IMG/VR virus record: IMGVR_UViG_2663762992_000009
From: a virus
Taxonomy: Duplodnaviria > Heunggongvirae > Uroviricota > Caudoviricetes
Length of the DNA: 28,397 nucleotides
Direction: 5' to 3' (one strand)
The notes beneath the pieces were generated by a model. It did not search any database. It was given only the letters and a program-made list of their open reading frames with translations, and was not told where the DNA came from. The stretch's first letter is position 1, and each line of letters starts with the position of its first letter. Below are positions 3,106-12,456 of the stretch, in pieces. The position numbers were made by a program, and so were the translations under genes.

Positions 3106-3459
3106 TTACCCGCCCCTCCCCCTGTTCCAGTGTGAATCGGGGTCAAGCGGGATCCCATCAGCATCACAGCCAGTCATTCTCCCGCTCTTTTCCATACGCT
3201 GTTTGGTTGAGTCGTGATGGGGTTTACATAACCCTTGCCAGTTTCCTCTGTCCCAGAACAGCTTTTGCGCCCGGGAGATATCTGCGGGATTTCCTGTTAT
3301 GAGAGCATCTTTCAACCTGTGTGGCGTGATATGATCGACCACAGTCGCCAGCTCAATCCTTCCCAGTGCCTGACACATAATGCATAAAGGATGTTCGCGC
3401 AGGAATGCCTGGCGGGCTTTACCCCATCTGCTGTCATAGATGCGCGGTTCTTTGTTCAT
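3106..3459 (-). CDS. HNH endonuclease (terminase-associated)
   Basis: 117-aa ORF with Cys pairs (CIMC ... CKPHH) and His residues (VDHITPH) in HNH-like spacing; lies immediately upstream of the small terminase, as is typical for HK97-like cos phages. Confidence 0.8.
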   Translation of the reverse strand: MNKEPRIYDSRWGKARQAFLREHPLCIMCQALGRIELATVVDHITPHRLKDALITGNPADISRAQKLFWDRGNWQGLCKPHHDSTKQRMEKSGRMTGCDADGIPLDPDSHWNRGRGG

Positions 3460-3477
3460 ACCACCATTACCTGTAAA

Positions 3478-3711
3478 TCAGTGCGGACACCGTTCAATCC
3501 TCACTAAGCCGTAAAGCATCTGCCTCTTCACTTCGCCGTTCTCTATGGTCGCGTGGCCATATTCATCACATGCAACAGCGATTACTTCACCTTTCTCATC
3601 ATCAGCAGTGAGCGCGCGCTTAACATCAACACCATCAAGATAGACAGTGTACCGCTCTACTCTGATATCAATCTTCCTGCCGGGATCATCATCTAATACA
3701 GTGAGGCGCAT
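3478..3711 (-). CDS. small hypothetical phage protein
   Basis: 77-aa ORF with normal GC content, same strand as neighbours and tightly spaced before the HNH gene; no family recognised. Confidence 0.45.
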   Translation of the reverse strand: MRLTVLDDDPGRKIDIRVERYTVYLDGVDVKRALTADDEKGEVIAVACDEYGHATIENGEVKRQMLYGLVRIERCPH

Positions 3712-4267
3712 TCCCCCCTCCTTGTTATTTATACGCGTGCAATGCGACTATGATTGCCGCACGTCCCTTGTCGGCATGGACGTTTAGCACGTGCTGGCAT
3801 CGGCGTTGCCCTGTTTGTTGGATAGAAATCATGTTGTACTCGGAGAGAAAAACGGAAATGGCAAATAGTGGACAATATTCATAAATAGAGAGAATCCACA
3901 CGGTCGCCGCCCCGTAACAGGTTGGATCGCATAACAGGCCCCATCAAATGAGAATGAATATCGATTATACTAATTAATGCTTAGAACAGGATCATATACC
4001 TGTATCAGGTCAGTCCACTCTTCACCTAAACGTGCAGATGTGTTAATCCGTCTCCCTGCTTAGCACCACTCTTTTGGTGATATACCCGTTTTGGCATAGT
4101 CGGCGAGAGACTGGTGTTGCAGCACTGTCCAGTCCTGTTTTACCATAAACCCCCTAGTTTTATCTTTTAATTAATAGATATTAGTAAGATGAATCAATGA
4201 TGTGCTCAGAGCAAAGCACATCCTGCGTTGCTTTTAGTGCCATTTAACCTATAGAGAGATATGACGC

Positions 4268-4513
4268 GTGAGAAAGTTAATCTGTCTAATTTCGTTCGTT
4301 GCAACATGCGGATTCGGGTATCAGGCATACCAGCATCATGGACTGGCTTCTCTACTGGCTTTCTTAGTCAGCTTAGGGGCTTTTCTAACTGCTGTAGCCA
4401 ACTTAATAAGTGACAAGAAGAAGTCATCCTCTATAAGCCAAGTGATTGGTAATAACTCTTCAGGAATACAAGTCAGTGGTAATTTAACCATTAATGAAAA
4501 GGACAAAAAATGA
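4268..4513 (+). CDS. small membrane protein (two predicted TM helices), first gene of AT-rich moron
   Basis: GTG start with GAGAG about 9 nt upstream; hydrophobic segments LICLISFVATCGF and LASLLAFLVSLGAFLTAVANLI; visibly AT-rich; stop overlaps the next start (ATGA). Confidence 0.5.
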   Translation: MRKLICLISFVATCGFGYQAYQHHGLASLLAFLVSLGAFLTAVANLISDKKKSSSISQVIGNNSSGIQVSGNLTINEKDKK

Positions 4514-5418
4514 GTCTTTTCGATCATAAGTCGGGTCAACATGTCGGAGATGGTTCTACCGCAATCCAAGTAACCGGTGATGCTATCATTGGTAATACTA
4601 CTACTGAAGTAGTTACTATCTGTGAATTAGTAGTTCAAGCACAAATGGCTTCTTTAAAAGAGGAAGCATATAAACTTGTAAACCAACGAGCGATAGAATT
4701 TGGTAATCAGATTGCAGCTAAACTTTCTAGTGATCTTGATCATAAATTAAAAGAGAAATTATCCGACCCTGACATTCAATATTCGATGAACCAAGCTGTA
4801 ACTCAGGTGGCTCGAAAAGGATTTGATGAAAAATCGGAGTTACTTAAAGAGCTAATCGTTTCTAAAATTCAAACTGAAGAAGAAGAGGATAGTATAGTTA
4901 TAGATCACGCTCTTGAGGTGACATCTAAATTAACAACAAACGACATTAAATTTCTCTCTCTAATATATTACCTCAGAAACATAAATAAGATACGAAACGG
5001 TATTAACATGACAGCTCTTGCTGAAAGAAATGAAACTCACTTTGGATTAATTGGCTTTACCGTAGAGCAAAACCATTCAGCCCACAAAGAATACTATGCT
5101 CGCTATGATATTGATTACATTAAATTCTTAGATAAAATAGAGTCTTTGAGAAAAATAAACATTGATCTCCTCAGCTTAAAAGGCGTTATCTTCACAGACA
5201 AGCAATACATAACAAACTATCAAGACCTACTTGAAAAAAGGACTGGAATCACCAGCTTTGAAAGCGATGAGATGTTCTTTGAAACATTTCCTGCTTTAAA
5301 GTTAACTCTAGATGCATTTGGCGTATCGACCATAAATGACTTTAATTCATATGTTTTAAATCCAATTGGCAACCTGATTGCTCAAAACTTTCTTCGGGCT
5401 CGGAACTTCCTTCAATAG
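4510..5418 (+). CDS. hypothetical 302-aa protein, second gene of AT-rich moron (candidate defence/abortive-infection or conversion function)
   Basis: Long ORF in an AT-rich segment; AAGGA RBS about 8 nt upstream; translationally coupled to the upstream small ORF; opposite orientation to the flanking late genes; no family recognised. Confidence 0.7.
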   Translation: MSLFDHKSGQHVGDGSTAIQVTGDAIIGNTTTEVVTICELVVQAQMASLKEEAYKLVNQRAIEFGNQIAAKLSSDLDHKLKEKLSDPDIQYSMNQAVTQVARKGFDEKSELLKELIVSKIQTEEEEDSIVIDHALEVTSKLTTNDIKFLSLIYYLRNINKIRNGINMTALAERNETHFGLIGFTVEQNHSAHKEYYARYDIDYIKFLDKIESLRKINIDLLSLKGVIFTDKQYITNYQDLLEKRTGITSFESDEMFFETFPALKLTLDAFGVSTINDFNSYVLNPIGNLIAQNFLRARNFLQ

Positions 5419-5597
5419 GATAAAAATTATCGTTTGTAAACATTCGACAGAAAAGGGTATTTTTATTAAGATACCCTTCAAATCCACACTTACTACAAAT
5501 ATATCTATAAAAAATAATTTAATTATCGAGATACATATCATTACATGATGTAGAGCTGAAAACTATTCAGCCCAACTTACATTTATCACATTCATAT

Positions 5598-6170
5598 TCA
5601 TTTAAAATGATTTACAACCTTAACGTCTCTGTCCTTTAACTCCATAATTTTTCCTAGTTGCTTGCGTTCCAACTCAATTTTACTGATACCAGTCAGTTGG
5701 TTATTCGCCTTCTCAATAGTAGCCAGCAGCGGCCCGATCCAGAGAACAGCCTGGCAGTATGTCAGAGAGCTGGCGGTAATGGTGTCACCACCGGCTGCAT
5801 CAGCGTTCCGGGGATCGGGGTACATTGCGCTGGCACGTAAACGGTACGCGTGGTCGAGCAGCCCGTCAGCGATATCAGCAGGAACAGGCAAATCACAGGT
5901 TTTTTCACGACGGAGTATCTCCCGGTATTCAATAACTGTTTTTTCGGAACCGGCATCAATCAGGGAGTTAAGGCGGCTGGTATTATCAGCAACCTGATTA
6001 AACCGGTTAAAGTTGAAAACCTGAGTGGCGATAACCTGCCCCTGTAGCGCGTTATCATTGCGAAGGATCCGGTTATCACTTTCTGATACAGCAAGGTCGG
6101 CCCGGCTGAATACCAGCATAACAACCACAACCAGGAACGAAATTATTGCGATAATCGTTATACGGTTCAT
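5598..6170 (-). CDS. Rz: i-spanin Rz
   Basis: N-terminal TM helix (ITIIAIISFLVVVVMLV) followed by a coiled-coil periplasmic domain; last gene of the lysis cassette; contains an embedded +1-frame lipoprotein ORF. Start placed at the ATG at 6170. Confidence 0.8.
   Translation of the reverse strand: MNRITIIAIISFLVVVVMLVFSRADLAVSESDNRILRNDNALQGQVIATQVFNFNRFNQVADNTSRLNSLIDAGSEKTVIEYREILRREKTCDLPVPADIADGLLDHAYRLRASAMYPDPRNADAAGGDTITASSLTYCQAVLWIGPLLATIEKANNQLTGISKIELERKQLGKIMELKDRDVKVVNHFK
5762..5908 (-). CDS. Rz1: o-spanin Rz1 (lipoprotein embedded in Rz, +1 frame)
   Basis: Embedded ORF with signal peptide and lipobox (LISLTGCS) and a Pro-rich C-terminus. Start placed at GTG 5908 with GGGAGA 9 nt upstream; the ORF-track start at 5959 is an alternative. 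Confidence 0.65.
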   Translation of the reverse strand: MKKPVICLFLLISLTGCSTTRTVYVPAQCTPIPGTLMQPVVTPLPPAL

Positions 6171-6174
6171 GGCT

Positions 6175-6312
6175 CTACCACCAGCGAATCGCCACAATCA
6201 GGCGCGCAATACCATACAGCACAACCGTCAACGCCACAGCCCGTATAGCCCATGCCGTAGCACTACTGATTTCTTTTGTTAACGGAGCATCTATTTCAAG
6301 GCCGTTTTTCAT
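6175..6312 (-). CDS. possible small membrane protein within lysis cassette
   Basis: Short ORF with a hydrophobic C-terminus (AIRAVALTVVLYGIARLIVAI) between the endolysin and Rz; overlaps the Rz start; the start codon is uncertain. Confidence 0.3.
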   Translation of the reverse strand: MKNGLEIDAPLTKEISSATAWAIRAVALTVVLYGIARLIVAIRWW

Positions 6313-6400
6313 AGTCAACCTCAACAGAATTCGTTTATACTTCCTCACAGGGAACACACCTCCCTATACATAATTTCTCCCTTGCTTTCCTCAAGGTGCA

Positions 6401-6450
6401 GAAACAGAAAACCCCGACTGTTTGCCGCAATCGGGGTTTTCGCTTTTAAT
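6401..6450. terminator. bidirectional rho-independent terminator-like hairpin between endolysin and Rz
   Basis: AAAACCCCGA (6408-6417) pairs with TCGGGGTTTT (6431-6440) around a 13-nt loop; T-rich tracts follow the stem on both strands. Confidence 0.5.
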
Positions 6451-6460
6451 ACACGCTCAC

Positions 6461-6883
6461 TTAACCCGCCAGTTCGAGCGCGCGGATAAACGTATCAAAG
6501 CTGTATGGCTGGCTACCGTTCTCGTGCTTAATAATGGCCTGCAACAGCTTCATCATGAAACGACTGTCACTGGTATCAATGCGCTGGTCGGGAGTAACAC
6601 CCGTCGCCTGAGCCACGTTGTTGATATACGCCAGCGTGTTGTTCTCGTTCGGCGGCGCCCAGCGTTTAATAATGCCGGTAACCGTGTTCAGCCCGTGCTT
6701 ACGCTGGTAATTGCGCAGGATGATGATCATCGCCCGGATACCATACTCAGGCGTAGTGAACTGGCAGAATGATTTATCAGTGCGCTGTGCTTTGGGTACC
6801 AGGCCCTGCCACTCATCACCCCACCGGATATTGCCGGGGTTGTTGTTGCGGATCCCGCGAGAAATTTTACTGGTTCTCATCAT
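6461..6883 (-). CDS. putative endolysin (muramidase-like), assigned mainly by position
   Basis: 140-aa ORF immediately after the holin, start overlapping the holin end; soluble, no TM segment; motif RNNNPGNIR. No similarity to lambda R or T4 lysozyme recognised by eye. Confidence 0.55.
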   Translation of the reverse strand: MMRTSKISRGIRNNNPGNIRWGDEWQGLVPKAQRTDKSFCQFTTPEYGIRAMIIILRNYQRKHGLNTVTGIIKRWAPPNENNTLAYINNVAQATGVTPDQRIDTSDSRFMMKLLQAIIKHENGSQPYSFDTFIRALELAG

Positions 6884-7202
6884 TTATCCCTGCCCGTTTT
6901 TTAAGCGCACTGATGGCAATTTCACGTAATTTATCCACGCCGACGAAGCCAATCACGCCACCGACAAAGGGTGATATCGATACAGGAAGGCCAAACGCAT
7001 CCAGCGCACTGGTGATACATAAAGAAAGGGCGCCACAAAGGACGCCCTCAAGCCATTTATTTTTTCGCGTGACGCCATCGTATATCAGGCGGGCATAAGC
7101 AATGAGTCCGGCCATTGATGCCCCCAGTAACTGGGGCCACGCATTTTTGAGTCCGGTCAAAACCGCCGCCCAGAATTCAGGGTTTTTGTCATTCATTTTC
7201 AT
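6867..7202 (-). CDS. class I holin, lambda S-like, with dual-start motif
   Basis: C-terminal region resembles lambda S as recalled (LDAFGL ... GFVGVDKLREIAISALKKRAGINDENQ); hydrophobic helices; starts MKM (ATG at 7202 and 7196), like the lambda S107/S105 dual start; SD-like GGTGAGG upstream. Confidence 0.8.
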   Translation of the reverse strand: MKMNDKNPEFWAAVLTGLKNAWPQLLGASMAGLIAYARLIYDGVTRKNKWLEGVLCGALSLCITSALDAFGLPVSISPFVGGVIGFVGVDKLREIAISALKKRAGINDENQ

Positions 7203-7243
7203 ATACCTCACCCCCGGTTTCCGGATGGTGCTGTGTACTGGTG

Positions 7244-7268
7244 AAAAAATTCAGCCTTCCGGGCTGAG
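7244..7268 (-). terminator. candidate intrinsic terminator between tRNAs and holin (minus strand)
   Basis: Hairpin TCAGCC (7251-7256) / GGCTGA (7262-7267) with a 5-nt loop; on the minus strand it is followed by a run of six U. Confidence 0.45.
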
Positions 7269-7467
7269 TATGCTGCAGATCTGAATACGAAAAAGGCCAC
7301 GCAAATGCGCAGCCTTTATAACGCGAGTTTTATTATTCGGAGGCACTCCATCCAACAAACCACCCATGGTTGCCAGGATTTTAACGGAGTGCTTTTGGAT
7401 GAGCGCTGGACCGGAAGGTCAGTATTTTTACACAGCAATTTTGCAAAAAGCAGCGCCCATTCAAAAC

Positions 7468-7543
<76 letters not shown>

Positions 7544-7546
7544 TTT

Positions 7547-7623
7547 TGGTGGCCCTTGCTGGACTTGAACCAGCGACCTGGCGATTATGAGTCGCACGCT
7601 CTGACCAACTGAGCTAAAGGGCC
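7547..7623 (-). tRNA. tRNA with CAU anticodon (Ile2-lysidine type or Met)
   Basis: Full cloverleaf on the minus strand: acceptor GGCCCTT/AAGGGCC, D-arm GCTC/GAGC, anticodon loop CTCATAA, T-arm GCTGG-TTCAAGT-CCAGC, CCA end; closely resembles the E. coli ileX sequence as I recall it. Confidence 0.85.
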
Positions 7624-7630
7624 ATGACGC

Positions 7631-7737
7631 TGCGGTGCCGGACCGCTATTATTCCGGTAGATTGCGCGCTGATACACAATCTGCTTCGCGAAAATTCTCC
7701 ATTTCAGCAAGCCTCAACGCTAGTGAGATTCACCGCA
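7631..7737. repeat. repeat unit A (~100-nt element with complementary termini TGCGGTG...CACCGCA)
   Basis: Shares 5' end tgcggtgccgg and 3' end cgctagtgagattcaccgca with the units at 8860-8963 and 9074-9166; abuts the tRNA-Ile gene. Confidence 0.7.
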
Positions 7738-7938
7738 ATGAGAAAAATTTATCGTCCGCAGATTCTGGCAGGCAAGGCCTCTTCCAAATAAATTACTCAA
7801 AATGCGAAACTGCGCACGGAGAATTAAACCTTCAAAAAGCTAAGACATCACACTTGACCGGTTCAGAAAAAAATCATTATGTTCTTTCTGCTTCTCCCAT
7901 GAAGCGACCTCAATTATTTTCTGCTTATGTGTGATTTT

Positions 7939-7966
7939 GCCCGTTCTGTATGACGGGCTTTTTTCA
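7939..7966 (+). terminator. rho-independent terminator hairpin, plus orientation (element copy 1)
   Basis: GCCCGT (7939-7944) / ACGGGC (7953-7958) with an 8-nt loop, followed by TTTTTT; the preceding ~45 nt resemble the element at 9328-9400. Confidence 0.6.
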
Positions 7967-8014
7967 ACGTCATCATCCCTGTTCATTAAATGTGTATTCA
8001 TCCATCCAGGTTTA

Positions 8015-8449
8015 CTAATTCCATACAGTTCCCCTGGCGACCGAATAACGCCCTGCCCCCAGTAATGCAACTGACAGAGAGCCAACAAAAAAATACACCA
8101 GGCTTTCTATTCCCCACGCGCCAGTACTTTCGAGCATCCATGTTTCCTCTACCCCCACCAGAAGCCAGGCCACAATCATTGTAAAAGCCAGCAACAGTGC
8201 TGCGGGGCGAGTAAGAACCCCAAGAATAATCAGGCCTGGAGCCAAAACCTCTCCCACAATTGCTCCGTATGCGAAAAATCCAGGTAAGCCGTTAGCTATA
8301 AGCATGCCGCTAATACCTTCAACTCCTGCAAAGAGCTTATGCAAACCATGAAATAACATCAGCCCACCAACAGCAAGTCTTAACAGGAACTTACCAAAGT
8401 CAGCATGGGATAAGATCTGGTTAATTTTATTCAGTACGATAGTAATCAT
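8015..8449 (-). CDS. DoxX-family inner-membrane protein (cargo gene in the Q-to-lysis region)
   Basis: 144-aa ORF with four hydrophobic segments and a DoxX-like N-terminus (FGKFLLRLAVGGLMLFHGLHKL); GGAG SD 9 nt upstream of the ATG at 8449. Confidence 0.7.
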   Translation of the reverse strand: MITIVLNKINQILSHADFGKFLLRLAVGGLMLFHGLHKLFAGVEGISGMLIANGLPGFFAYGAIVGEVLAPGLIILGVLTRPAALLLAFTMIVAWLLVGVEETWMLESTGAWGIESLVYFFVGSLSVALLGAGRYSVARGTVWN

Positions 8450-10634: not shown

Positions 10635-11233
10635 CAGGCGAACTCCAGCAACTGCATCGCTACATTTTCAGCTTCCTGTGGTGTTCTGAATTTTCGACAG
10701 AGGATGAAATTCCACAGGACGTTAAAGACATCCTTATAGAATTGCCGGAACGTATCTTCATCCATACGGGAGAAAGAAATAGATTTGGGAATTCTGCGGC
10801 GACAATTATCCGGGAGAACAACTTCATCGAAGTAACCAGCCTGAACCGTCACCCATGCCCGGTATGGCTCGAAAGACTTCAGTAAGGCAACATCCCCAGT
10901 ACGTAACTGCCCTTCTTTCAACAGAAATTCATCCGCTGCGGAGGTTAAAACATCACCGTATTGATGACCGGACATCTCAACAAGATAAGTGACAAAGCGA
11001 TTTATCAGCGAAAGTTCATCTGGTGAAAGCACACCACCGACAGGTGTCCAGTAATCGAAGCCCAGTTGCAGAAGTTTGAAGAAACGCTTATGAAAGGCGT
11101 AGTTGCGGACACGTCTGAAATCAGCGTGTATCCACTCGCCAGTTTTGACTGAATGTACAAAGCCCTCACTCTCCGGTGTTGCCGGGAGCAGGATCCCTGA
11201 TGCGGTCTGTTTGACCAGTTGTAAGTGCGCCAT
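10634..11233 (-). CDS. conserved lambdoid nin-region protein (DUF1367-like, tentative)
   Basis: 199-aa ORF of normal GC, start/stop-coupled to the YbcO-like gene; family assignment is from memory only. Confidence 0.55.
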   Translation of the reverse strand: MAHLQLVKQTASGILLPATPESEGFVHSVKTGEWIHADFRRVRNYAFHKRFFKLLQLGFDYWTPVGGVLSPDELSLINRFVTYLVEMSGHQYGDVLTSAADEFLLKEGQLRTGDVALLKSFEPYRAWVTVQAGYFDEVVLPDNCRRRIPKSISFSRMDEDTFRQFYKDVFNVLWNFILCRKFRTPQEAENVAMQLLEFA

Positions 11234-11415
11234 CGTTGCTCCGGTGGCGCGACAGGTTGTCAGTTGTTCAGGCTGACGTGGGGATTATAAGCCAATCCGG
11301 GATGATTCGGTAGTATGACAAGAGTTTCTTTATGCTTCGAACTGTACTGGATCAGACTCTAATTGACAGTCTGCTTTGAGCAGGTTGGCTACCGAAAATT
11401 TGGCGATTTAGATCG

Positions 11416-12456
11416 TCATCGAACATTCGGTGATATTGCTATCTTTAGATCACTAGTAAGCATCGCGGCCTGCTTTTCTAAAGCCTCTAACATAAAATCT
11501 GTTTTGTCTTGTATCCTAACGAGTAAATAGAATGGTTCACTACTCGTACAGGTTAAACGTGATGTTGTAAAGTCATCACGGTGAGGTATTAATGCGCGAT
11601 AATTTCCTTCAGCGATAAACATAAAGCGAGCATTAGGATGTTCACTGAGCCACATATACTTATTCCTGCAAAAGAAAGTATCGCGTGTGTCATACTTCAT
11701 GGCAAATCCAAAACCGACTTTTATGATGGATAACGTATGTATACTAAATGCAACATATGAAATGCAGCCAATAAGAAATAATGGGACGAAAACTGACATT
11801 AAATAGTTATTATCATCATCAGTTGGCGTTACTTTCCTTTTCTTTACTTTTGAGGGCATCAATATTAAACAAATAATGCAAACAAGGTAAATGATGCAAT
11901 ACAATATAAAAATAAAAAGTAATGCTACAACTGCCGTCATGAGTTTATTGAATGTAGCATCAAATGGAATGTCAAACAAATTGGAAATTAGCGAGCGTGC
12001 AATATAATATGAAATTAATGATACAATTACCCACACATATTTAATTCCCAGGTTAATTTTTATGGCTATGTTTTTTTCTTCATTATCGAACGATTTTATG
12101 TGAGATGATATTGTGTATGTAATACACAATATCGTCACAAAAGCCAATGTATATGGAATGATGGTATTTATATAACCAATAACGTTAAAGGAAACAATTG
12201 TTAATAAAAACAGAAATACCGACAACAGTGCGGCATCTTGCGTTTTTTTATAATTTTTTCGAAGGCGAACGGCCTGTTGACTGGATGACTTTTTATTCCA
12301 ATTATTTTGTACGATTAATCCGCTGAGAATAATCATACCAAACCAAATAAGAATGGGGTATACAGGATCACTCTGAGGTATGATGACGAGCACTGCCATA
12401 AAAAACAATAAACTGTGAACAATCCCGAGGTGTAAGGAAGAGTATATACTTTTCAT
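11416..12456 (-). CDS. AT-rich polytopic membrane protein with C-terminal soluble domain (cargo; candidate superinfection-exclusion/defence protein)
   Basis: 346-aa ORF, strongly AT-rich; about seven hydrophobic segments in the first ~230 aa, then a ~110-aa hydrophilic tail; AAGG SD upstream of the ATG at 12456; about 180-bp gaps on both sides. Confidence 0.7.
   Translation of the reverse strand: MKSIYSSLHLGIVHSLLFFMAVLVIIPQSDPVYPILIWFGMIILSGLIVQNNWNKKSSSQQAVRLRKNYKKTQDAALLSVFLFLLTIVSFNVIGYINTIIPYTLAFVTILCITYTISSHIKSFDNEEKNIAIKINLGIKYVWVIVSLISYYIARSLISNLFDIPFDATFNKLMTAVVALLFIFILYCIIYLVCIICLILMPSKVKKRKVTPTDDDNNYLMSVFVPLFLIGCISYVAFSIHTLSIIKVGFGFAMKYDTRDTFFCRNKYMWLSEHPNARFMFIAEGNYRALIPHRDDFTTSRLTCTSSEPFYLLVRIQDKTDFMLEALEKQAAMLTSDLKIAISPNVR

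Follow-up and report, generated by a model that had tools for sequence, protein, structure and literature searches.

A prophage gene pair in which a two-transmembrane protein and an LPO_1073/Vpar_1526-family protein share a RHIM-like terminal motif

Exploring a 28,397-nucleotide stretch of viral DNA (IMG/VR record IMGVR_UViG_2663762992_000009, Caudoviricetes; this whole stretch is the window referred to below), we found that two overlapping genes at positions 4268 to 5418 encode a very small membrane protein together with a soluble member of the LPO_1073/Vpar_1526 family, and that these two proteins, judging from their sequences, carry the same RHIM-like motif at their facing ends. The pairing of an LPO_1073/Vpar_1526 protein with a tiny membrane partner that shares such a terminal motif is what is new here. 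We propose that the module is an abortive-infection-type anti-phage switch with RHIM-like amyloid-type signalling; the proposal is tentative, and we give it a little short of even credence. The features of the pair are as follows.

4268..4513, + strand: small gene, an 81-residue open reading frame (ORF) with a GTG start (ORF list)
4510..5418, + strand: large gene, a 302-residue ORF with a soluble product (ORF list)
4510..4513, + strand: ATGA stop/start overlap of the small and large genes (sequence)
4436..4495, + strand: motif copy 1, small-protein residues 57-76, SQVIGNNSSGIQVSGNLTIN, core N-S-S-G-I-Q-V-S-G-N
4534..4593, + strand: motif copy 2, large-protein residues 9-28, GQHVGDGSTAIQVTGDAIIG, disordered in the monomer model
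4597..4989, + strand: conserved, family-defining N-terminal helical domain, large-protein residues 30-160, ratio of nonsynonymous to synonymous substitution (dN/dS) 0.04
4990..5415, + strand: variable C-terminal helical domain, large-protein residues 161-302, with a weak winged-helix-like sub-fold

A motif shared by the facing ends of two proteins

An initial annotation made from the letters of the window had described an 81-residue protein with two transmembrane (TM) segments, whose ORF overlaps that of a 302-residue soluble protein in the ATGA at 4510-4513. Both ORFs and their 4-nt overlap were confirmed at these positions. An 81-codon ORF with a GTG start precedes the large gene in all 26 related loci that were fetched, 25 of which have an AATGA-type junction and one (L023) a 5-nt gap. 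Comparison of the window with a 76%-identical Klebsiella copy gave a dN/dS of 0.12 for the small gene and 0.09 for the large gene. Given these low ratios and the recurrence of the pair in 26 of 26 related loci, we conclude that both ORFs are genuine genes.

The motif of about 20 residues was present at the C-terminal end of the small protein and at the N-terminal end of the large protein in every one of the 24 pairs examined. The sample comprised Enterobacterales prophages, Burkholderia, Pseudomonas, Shewanella, Comamonadaceae, Brocadiaceae, Chlorobiaceae, Methylocystaceae, Desulfomonile, Nitrospirillum, Aliivibrio, Pantoea and others; three of its distant pairs were obtained via the protein database (Burkholderia, Pseudomonas and Shewanella; 27-32% identity) and 14 via a genome scan. 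All 24 pairs consist of a two-TM small protein with a motif tail, encoded upstream of a large protein with an N-terminal motif, and in all of them the genes overlap or are separated by at most 23 nt. The consensus of the small-tail core is N-S-S/T-G-I-Q-[A/I/V]-G-G-N. Over the 48 motif copies the composition is 17.2% G, 11.1% Q, 10% S, 10.0% I, 10% A, 9.1% V and 9.0% N, while P (0%), L (1.4%) and K (2.2%) are depleted.

The two copies of the motif resemble each other most within a pair. The third residue after the central Q, which is G, R or N, is identical in both partners in 23 of the 24 pairs, and cognate motifs share on average 9.1 of 20 residues vs 7.7 of 20 for non-cognate ones. In a permutation test of covariation over all pairs none of 50,000 shuffles reached the observed value, and within the distant clade the test gave p = 0.008. 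The identical residues of the two copies are mostly encoded by different codons (11 of 14 in L043 and 8 of 11 in L045), indicating that the likeness is maintained by selection on the protein; the same codon differences argue against a recent DNA duplication or gene conversion as its source, which we reject. The motif-coding segments start 98 nt apart (4436 and 4534) in the window and in loci L023, L034, L043 and L045, and 95-110 nt apart in the other four of the eight loci measured besides the window, thus the linker that runs from the first motif across the gene junction to the second is nearly constant in length. A relative of the large protein with 56% identity, P0021, has a 7-residue internal duplication within its N-terminal motif (residues ~20-33, QVTGDLTQVTGDL), which is a pseudo-repeat like those described in some amyloid signalling motifs.

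The small protein has two hydrophobic segments of TM length (approximately residues 4-20 and 25-47; 19-residue Kyte-Doolittle maximum 2.27), followed by a Lys-rich linker and the C-terminal tail that bears the motif. By the positive-inside rule (R2 and K3 at the N-terminus, KKK after the second TM segment), the tail is predicted to be cytoplasmic and would therefore be accessible to a soluble partner. Homologues of the small protein form 26 clusters of 81-residue proteins with a mean column identity of 80%, and among the PHROGs the protein matches phrog_27656 (E 2.5e-8). We do not count it among the phage holins: its only link to them is a weak match to the PHROG holin family phrog_217 (E 0.0038), its gene runs counter to the late operon, and the holin of the window is encoded elsewhere, at 6867-7211. 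We propose instead that the small protein is the inner-membrane effector of the pair.

The large protein has no hydrophobic TM segment by hydropathy. The initial annotation had recognised no relatives of it; this claim does not stand, since residues 28-295 match the LPO_1073/Vpar_1526 family model NF045477 at 105.8 bits (cutoff 45; E 2.9e-30). NF045477 of NCBIfam and PF28206 (Vpar_1526) of Pfam describe the same family, and a precomputed PF28206 match is found on every homologue; a Pfam scan of both proteins with a copy of the database that lacks PF28206 gave noise only. At E <= 1e-3 the family comprises 1506 representatives of 50%-identity clusters. Its members are mostly 280-300 residues long, with the N-terminal 160 residues in common and a divergent C-terminal half, and most of the 1506 representatives match the profile at positions ~5-160 only. 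The same division is seen between the window and Klebsiella copies, in which dN/dS is 0.16 for the C-terminal half and 0.04 for the N-terminal half of the large gene. We propose that the variable C-terminal domain serves in specificity or sensing.

An AlphaFold2 model of the large protein built on a deeper alignment is all-helical (predicted local distance difference test score, pLDDT, 84; predicted template modelling score, pTM, 0.81). In this monomer model residues 1-28, the motif region, have a pLDDT below 50, and the remainder is confidently folded. A fold search with the model returned no convincingly similar solved structure, only a weak winged-helix sub-match, and a search of the Protein Data Bank (PDB) sequences with the family profile gave nothing below E 0.1. 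Across Pfam, NCBIfam and the fold search we found no enzymatic fold and no NTPase or repeat domain in the large protein. A structural, lysis or packaging homology, by which the initial annotation would have abandoned its own suggestion of a defence, exclusion or conversion module, did not emerge. Two metagenomic relatives of 470-485 residues, P0171 and P0229, carry an N-terminal HNH-like domain (HNH_2 match with E 1e-3, just under the cutoff), followed by a motif-like Q/N/G/V stretch and then the Vpar_1526 domain. In these fusions a nuclease looks to have taken the place of the separate membrane partner, resembling an effector swap of the kind that is typical for defence systems.

Likeness to amyloid signalling pairs and the readings of the module

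RHIM, the fungal PP motif and the bacterial BASS3 motif have a pseudo-palindromic G-φ-Q-φ-G core with flanking N and G (10.1101/2020.01.06.895854; PMC7885112). The small tails have G-I-Q-[A/I/V]-G in 21 of the 24 pairs, matching this core. When a profile of 22 tails was compared with 177,635 distinct PDB sequences, the single match was the RHIM peptide NSTGIQIG of RIPK1 (E 0.37, 8 residues), and among 24,736 Pfam models (E <= 10) the sole family matched by the tails was RHIM (PF12721; 3 of the 22 tails, best E 0.048).

Bacterial and fungal amyloid signalling motifs are 20-25 residues long, rich in Q, N, G, V and I but poor in K, P and L, and bacterial BASS pairs have been searched for as adjacent collinear genes with the motif at the C-terminal end of the effector and the N-terminal end of the receptor (10.1101/2020.01.06.895854). 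In the known pairs, binding of a ligand makes the receptor assemble, and the assembled receptor templates a cross-β fold in the motif of the membrane-targeting effector, by which cell death is set off. The present pair has the adjacent, overlapping genes, the motif shared by facing ends and the motif composition described by Dyrka et al. (2020) for such pairs; the large protein is not an NLR receptor (NB-ARC or NACHT with repeats). In core, length, composition and paired genes the module is thus like the RHIM/PP/BASS3 group, i.e. the RIPK1-RIPK3 necrosome, HELLP/PNT1 and the Bell/NLR pairs of Actinobacteria and Cyanobacteria. It differs from this group in that its partner domains are neither Bell nor NLR and in that its hosts are unicellular Proteobacteria and their prophages, and the likeness may have arisen through convergence. 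By their descriptions, the ~80-100-residue soluble helical bundles of Bell and Babybell are set apart from the 81-residue small protein with its two TM-length segments.

A close parallel of demonstrated mechanism is Bab/Agp of E. coli ECOR25, an amyloid-signalling abortive infection system of an E. coli prophage (Ibarlosa et al., 10.1101/2024.11.07.622273). Each is a collinear pair of neighbouring genes in a prophage or a defence hot spot, each has a non-NLR sensor, and in both a motif of about 20 residues stands at the C-terminus of a small membrane-targeting effector and at the N-terminus of the downstream sensor. Unlike the 81-residue integral two-TM hairpin found here, the Bab effector is a soluble Babybell domain of four to five helices (109 residues); Agp has 1094 residues with TPR, GreA/B-C and PIN domains, whereas the 302-residue protein has no such Pfam matches; and the motif of Bab/Agp is BASS11, in place of the RHIM-like core. 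Compared at its cited positions only (I87-G88-S89-V90, Q92, D99 and N100), BASS11 shows no obvious alignment with the motif spacing of the present pair. The HET-S/NWD2 system of Podospora anserina, the model case of a pore-former activated by amyloid templating, is alike in that adjacent genes encode a receptor whose N-terminal motif templates the C-terminal motif of an effector, activating a membrane-damaging domain. It has no sequence relationship to the pair: HET-S combines a HeLo domain with two pseudo-repeats, in contrast to the single repeat per side found here, and NWD2 is an NLR of the NACHT-WD type. What we claim by analogy is that the pair would work like an amyloid-signalling abortive infection pair with a RHIM-like core, and not that it is a member of BASS3 or of Bab/Agp.

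Because the pair has the layout of an amyloid pair, the properties of the motif and a membrane effector, we propose the following division of labour. The 302-residue cytosolic protein would be the sensor, in which the conserved helical N-terminal domain is the scaffold, the fast-evolving C-terminal domain recognises a phage cue and the first ~28 residues form a disordered RHIM-like motif. The 81-residue two-TM protein would be the inner-membrane effector, with the same motif at the end of its cytoplasmic tail. Once the cue is sensed, the sensors would come together and stack their N-terminal motifs as a cross-β (amyloid-type) template, which would recruit and convert the tails of the membrane protein; the TM hairpins would then cluster into a membrane-disrupting assembly, by which the infected cell is killed or arrested. 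We infer that the pair is expressed in lysogens and confers an anti-phage phenotype through cross-β assembly and membrane damage.

A number of observations weigh against this switch. The RHIM matches (E 0.37 and 0.048) are under significance thresholds and span only ~8 residues; no significant match to the RHIM profile was obtained, and the proteins of the window have no match to Pfam RHIM at E <= 1. The tail of the small protein in the window itself reads G-I-Q-V-S and so departs from G-φ-Q-φ-G, as do those of L044 (G-I-Q-S-G) and L048 (A-I-Q-A-G), and the large proteins have A-[I/L/V]-Q-φ-x-G, with A instead of G ahead of I-Q throughout. Covariation in the enterobacterial clade alone is not significant (p = 0.34) and, the independent changes being few, the covariation seen in the sequences is clade-level; for the window pair by itself, the local alignment of the two motifs is modestly above shuffles, 35 of 2000 of which score as high. 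The sensor lacks an NTPase or other known oligomerisation engine. Consensus scans of the window, L003 and L007 gave no σ70-consensus promoter upstream of the small gene, no family of PADLOC-DB 2.0.0 matches either protein at E <= 1, and no paper in the literature searched assigns a function to LPO_1073/Vpar_1526. Some members of the family lie among housekeeping genes, for example between those for GST and MarR in Burkholderia and beside those for MutL, NadA or AlaRS elsewhere.

Several of these points would be expected if the module were a RexAB-like defence or abortive infection system, with the shared motif as a conventional docking element that tethers or releases the sensor by β-strand pairing or competitive pocket binding, without templating. 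This alternative is unlikely, yet it has to be taken seriously. RexA/RexB of phage λ is a two-gene exclusion system expressed from the prophage, in which a soluble sensor of ~280-300 residues acts with a small inner-membrane effector that collapses the membrane potential, and the same gene logic, a soluble protein of about 300 residues and a small inner-membrane protein encoded by two prophage genes, is found here; the motif, moreover, is short and present in one copy per side, its RHIM matches are sub-threshold and no oligomerising NTPase is present in the sensor. RexB, on the other hand, spans the membrane with four TM segments, the RexAB locus is in the immunity region, unlike the lysis/terminase junction occupied by the pair, and RexAB is not known to have a shared terminal motif. 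Neither PADLOC nor Pfam revealed homology of the pair to RexA/RexB. Ordinary heteromeric interfaces need complementary sequences, whereas the two sides of the present pair are alike and change together. The Q/N/G/V/I bias, the complete absence of proline and a length of 20 residues, which corresponds to one β-arch layer, are specific to cross-β signalling motifs (10.1101/2020.01.06.895854).

The genomic context of the family bears on the remaining alternatives. In Pseudomonas sp. TH05 a ShosTA system (L031, 9032-11507; ShosA E 1e-85, ShosT E 8e-50) lies directly downstream of a distant pair, in a region that also contains UmuDC, SRAP and phage lysis genes. In Shewanella the pair is flanked by a PDC candidate gene and an Mrr-like gene, and among the genes around 14 further loci are those for ThsB, a type I S-subunit, Cas1, WYL and a restriction endonuclease as well as housekeeping genes. 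The tally of defence neighbours has no control and is used as supporting context only. The guess of the initial annotation that the pair is a defence, superinfection-exclusion or conversion module is strengthened by the RHIM-like motif, by ShosTA and the other defence neighbours and by the rare HNH-fused relatives; the search of PADLOC that it had suggested linked neither protein to a known defence system. The prophage defence proteins HepS (a HEPN protein), TerI (an inhibitor of the small terminase) and GiPD474 (an ATPase), which are described in the literature, are unrelated. Another defence moron is likely present in the pair-carrying Klebsiella prophage of L003, where a gene at 10726-11787, between the antiterminator and the holin, encodes a RelA/SpoT-domain protein that matches the PADLOC candidate PDC-S33 (E 1e-119).

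Superinfection exclusion, in which the inner-membrane protein, held or regulated by its cytosolic partner, would block the entry of phage DNA in the manner of P22 SieA or T4 Imm and without killing, accords with a small inner-membrane protein encoded by a prophage moron opposite to the late genes. It is nevertheless improbable, for it explains neither the shared, covarying motif nor the need for a 300-residue partner with a fast-evolving domain; in addition, members of the family are found outside prophages too, adjoining intracellular defence such as ShosTA, and the HNH-fused relatives indicate an intracellular effector role. Slightly more remote still is a lysogenic-conversion or stress module that acts outside phage conflict, such as a sensor of membrane stress or an addiction pair of the toxin-antitoxin kind that keeps the prophage stable. 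Such a role would fit the distant members that lie among housekeeping genes with no mobile or defence neighbours, as well as the failure to match any defence model; against it stand the repeated association with prophage hot spots and known defence genes and the variable C-terminal domain, which fits diversifying recognition. The least probable explanation is that the pair serves the lysis or packaging of the phage itself, e.g. as a holin-like protein and its regulator, since the weak phrog_217 match of the small protein (E 0.0038) and the location next to Rz/Rz1 are outweighed by transcription against the late operon, by the lack of the pair in nearly all related phages and in all 50,697 phage records, by the holin-endolysin-spanin set already complete in the window and by conservation of the pair in non-phage chromosomal contexts.

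Amyloid-templated death signalling has so far been described for the RHIM necrosome of animals, for HET-S/NWD2 and PP of fungi and for one anti-phage pair of E. coli (Bab/Agp). In bacteria, amyloid signalling was thought to be mostly restricted to multicellular lineages with Bell/NLR pairs, and BASS pairs have been reported mainly from multicellular bacteria. Confirmation of the proposed abortive-infection switch would add a second, unrelated combination of effector and sensor that uses the same logic, with a core motif that looks like RHIM and a broad distribution in ordinary Gram-negative bacteria and prophages, and would give the first functional lead for a named, uncharacterised family of ~1500 sequence clusters. 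With two genes in 1.2 kb, the module would also be a very small system in which to study how a membrane protein receives a death signal by way of a 20-residue motif. It is conceivable, though on balance we doubt it, that the LPO_1073/Vpar_1526 protein and its two-TM partner constitute as a whole a large, previously unrecognised class of RHIM-like amyloid-signalling cell-death systems, with ~1500 clusters at 50% identity in Proteobacteria, other unicellular bacteria and prophages. Such a class would be the minimal form of these systems, in which a templating motif of 20 residues is attached straight to a TM hairpin, and with it RHIM-type signalling would extend well past multicellular bacteria, fungi and animals.

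Movement of the module at the lysis/packaging junction

The pair interrupts the late region of the prophage between the spanin genes and the HNH/terminase genes, as the initial annotation had it, and all flanking phage genes are on the minus strand, opposite to the pair. The features around it are listed here.

portal, - strand: flanking phage gene, on the same side as TerL
734-2476, - strand: TerL
2427-2900, - strand: TerS
3106-3459, - strand: HNH
3478-3711, - strand: 77-residue ORF, adjoining the HNH gene
4063..4146, - strand: fossil 2, the first 28 codons of a different small-terminase gene, stop-terminated (tblastn, 57% identity, E 6e-9)
4193..4243, - strand: fossil 1, the first 17 codons (MALKATQDVLCSEHIID) of a Terminase_2 small-terminase gene (tblastn against TerS of L007, E 0.005 in a 701-nt database)
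5453..5478, no strand assigned: 11-bp hairpin, candidate 3' boundary or terminator of the module, 35 nt past the large-gene stop
5598-6197, - strand: Rz
5762-5959, - strand: Rz1, embedded in Rz
6461-6883, - strand: endolysin
6867-7211, - strand: holin

The segment had been described as AT-rich compared with its flanks, which we can quantify: the G+C content (GC) of the two-gene module is 0.36, that of the flanks 0.49 and 0.48, and along the window GC is 0.30-0.38 over 4350-5700 vs ~0.47-0.54 on either side. In the 26 related loci the GC of the pair is 0.34-0.40 vs 0.41-0.55 for the flanks, and the pair is always on the strand opposite to the late genes, between the small terminase (or HNH) gene and the Rz/lysis genes. 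A P22-like prophage annotated in E. coli has the same arrangement, and in 27 related prophage loci the pair is placed between small-terminase and lysis genes. Across the host prophages the pair is surrounded by terminases, portals and lysis cassettes of different families, in agreement with the earlier suggestion that the junction of lysis and packaging genes is a recurrent site for cargo. The λ gene bor is likewise a moron downstream of Rz/Rz1 and ahead of cos/terminase, on the strand opposite to the late operon, and thus shares the type of insertion site and the orientation of the pair; Bor, a lone lipoprotein that acts in serum resistance, is encoded by a gene unrelated to the pair.

Relatives of the large protein with 40-99% identity were found in E. 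coli, Klebsiella, Enterobacter, Leclercia, Citrobacter, Serratia and Pantoea. The module is rare: a near match is lacking in all 5426 complete E. coli genomes, of which 10 have a 68%-identical relative, and the module is absent from all 50,697 sequenced phage records. The core-like conservation at this position that would have spoken against a cargo role was not seen across relatives. Judging from its composition, position and surroundings, the gene pair is a self-contained, horizontally mobile prophage moron at a recurrent insertion site.

Upstream of the small gene, the two terminase remnants are nested. The terminase type of fossil 1 is the one found immediately beside the module in most relatives, and its distance of 24 nt to the start of the small gene is close to the corresponding gap of 21 nt in L007. 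The type of fossil 2 is intact in the Klebsiella locus L003, with which the window shares DNA homology (76%) from 4053 to 5431. Homology with the E. coli locus L001 (99.4%) extends from 3461 to 5827 and ends inside Rz. In L001, the piece that matches window positions 5598-5827 is kept at 2138-2380 as an 80-residue ORF beside a different spanin, of the DUF2514 type, and the end of the homology inside Rz looks like a right-hand fossil of the same transfer. On the evidence of these remnants, the nested terminase fragments trace a series of recombination events through which the module passed between phage lineages, an unusually clear record of the movement of a moron by recombination at the lysis/packaging junction. 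The 77-residue ORF at 3478-3711, which matches only PHROGs of unknown function (phrog_24619, E 1.4e-7), accompanies the module in L001, L002 and L011.

On the other side of the module, the fold of 5419-5500 has a free energy of -16.8 kcal/mol (z -4.06), and none of 200 shuffles was equally stable. The hairpin at 5453-5478 within it is followed by no U-run on the plus strand and by a partial one on the minus strand. It may separate the module from the late operon as a boundary or terminator that works in both directions. Promoter candidates picked by eye were not conserved and were dropped.

An Rfam scan of 3400-8000 detected no family except tRNA, with a tRNA-Met at 7547-7623 (- strand) and a second, partial tRNA-like match at 7479-7536 (- strand). 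A gene for a DoxX-family membrane protein, which is also present in L001, follows at 8015-8449 (- strand). The tRNA-Met, the partial tRNA-like match and the DoxX gene lie between the antiterminator region and the holin, and form a second cargo site of the prophage.

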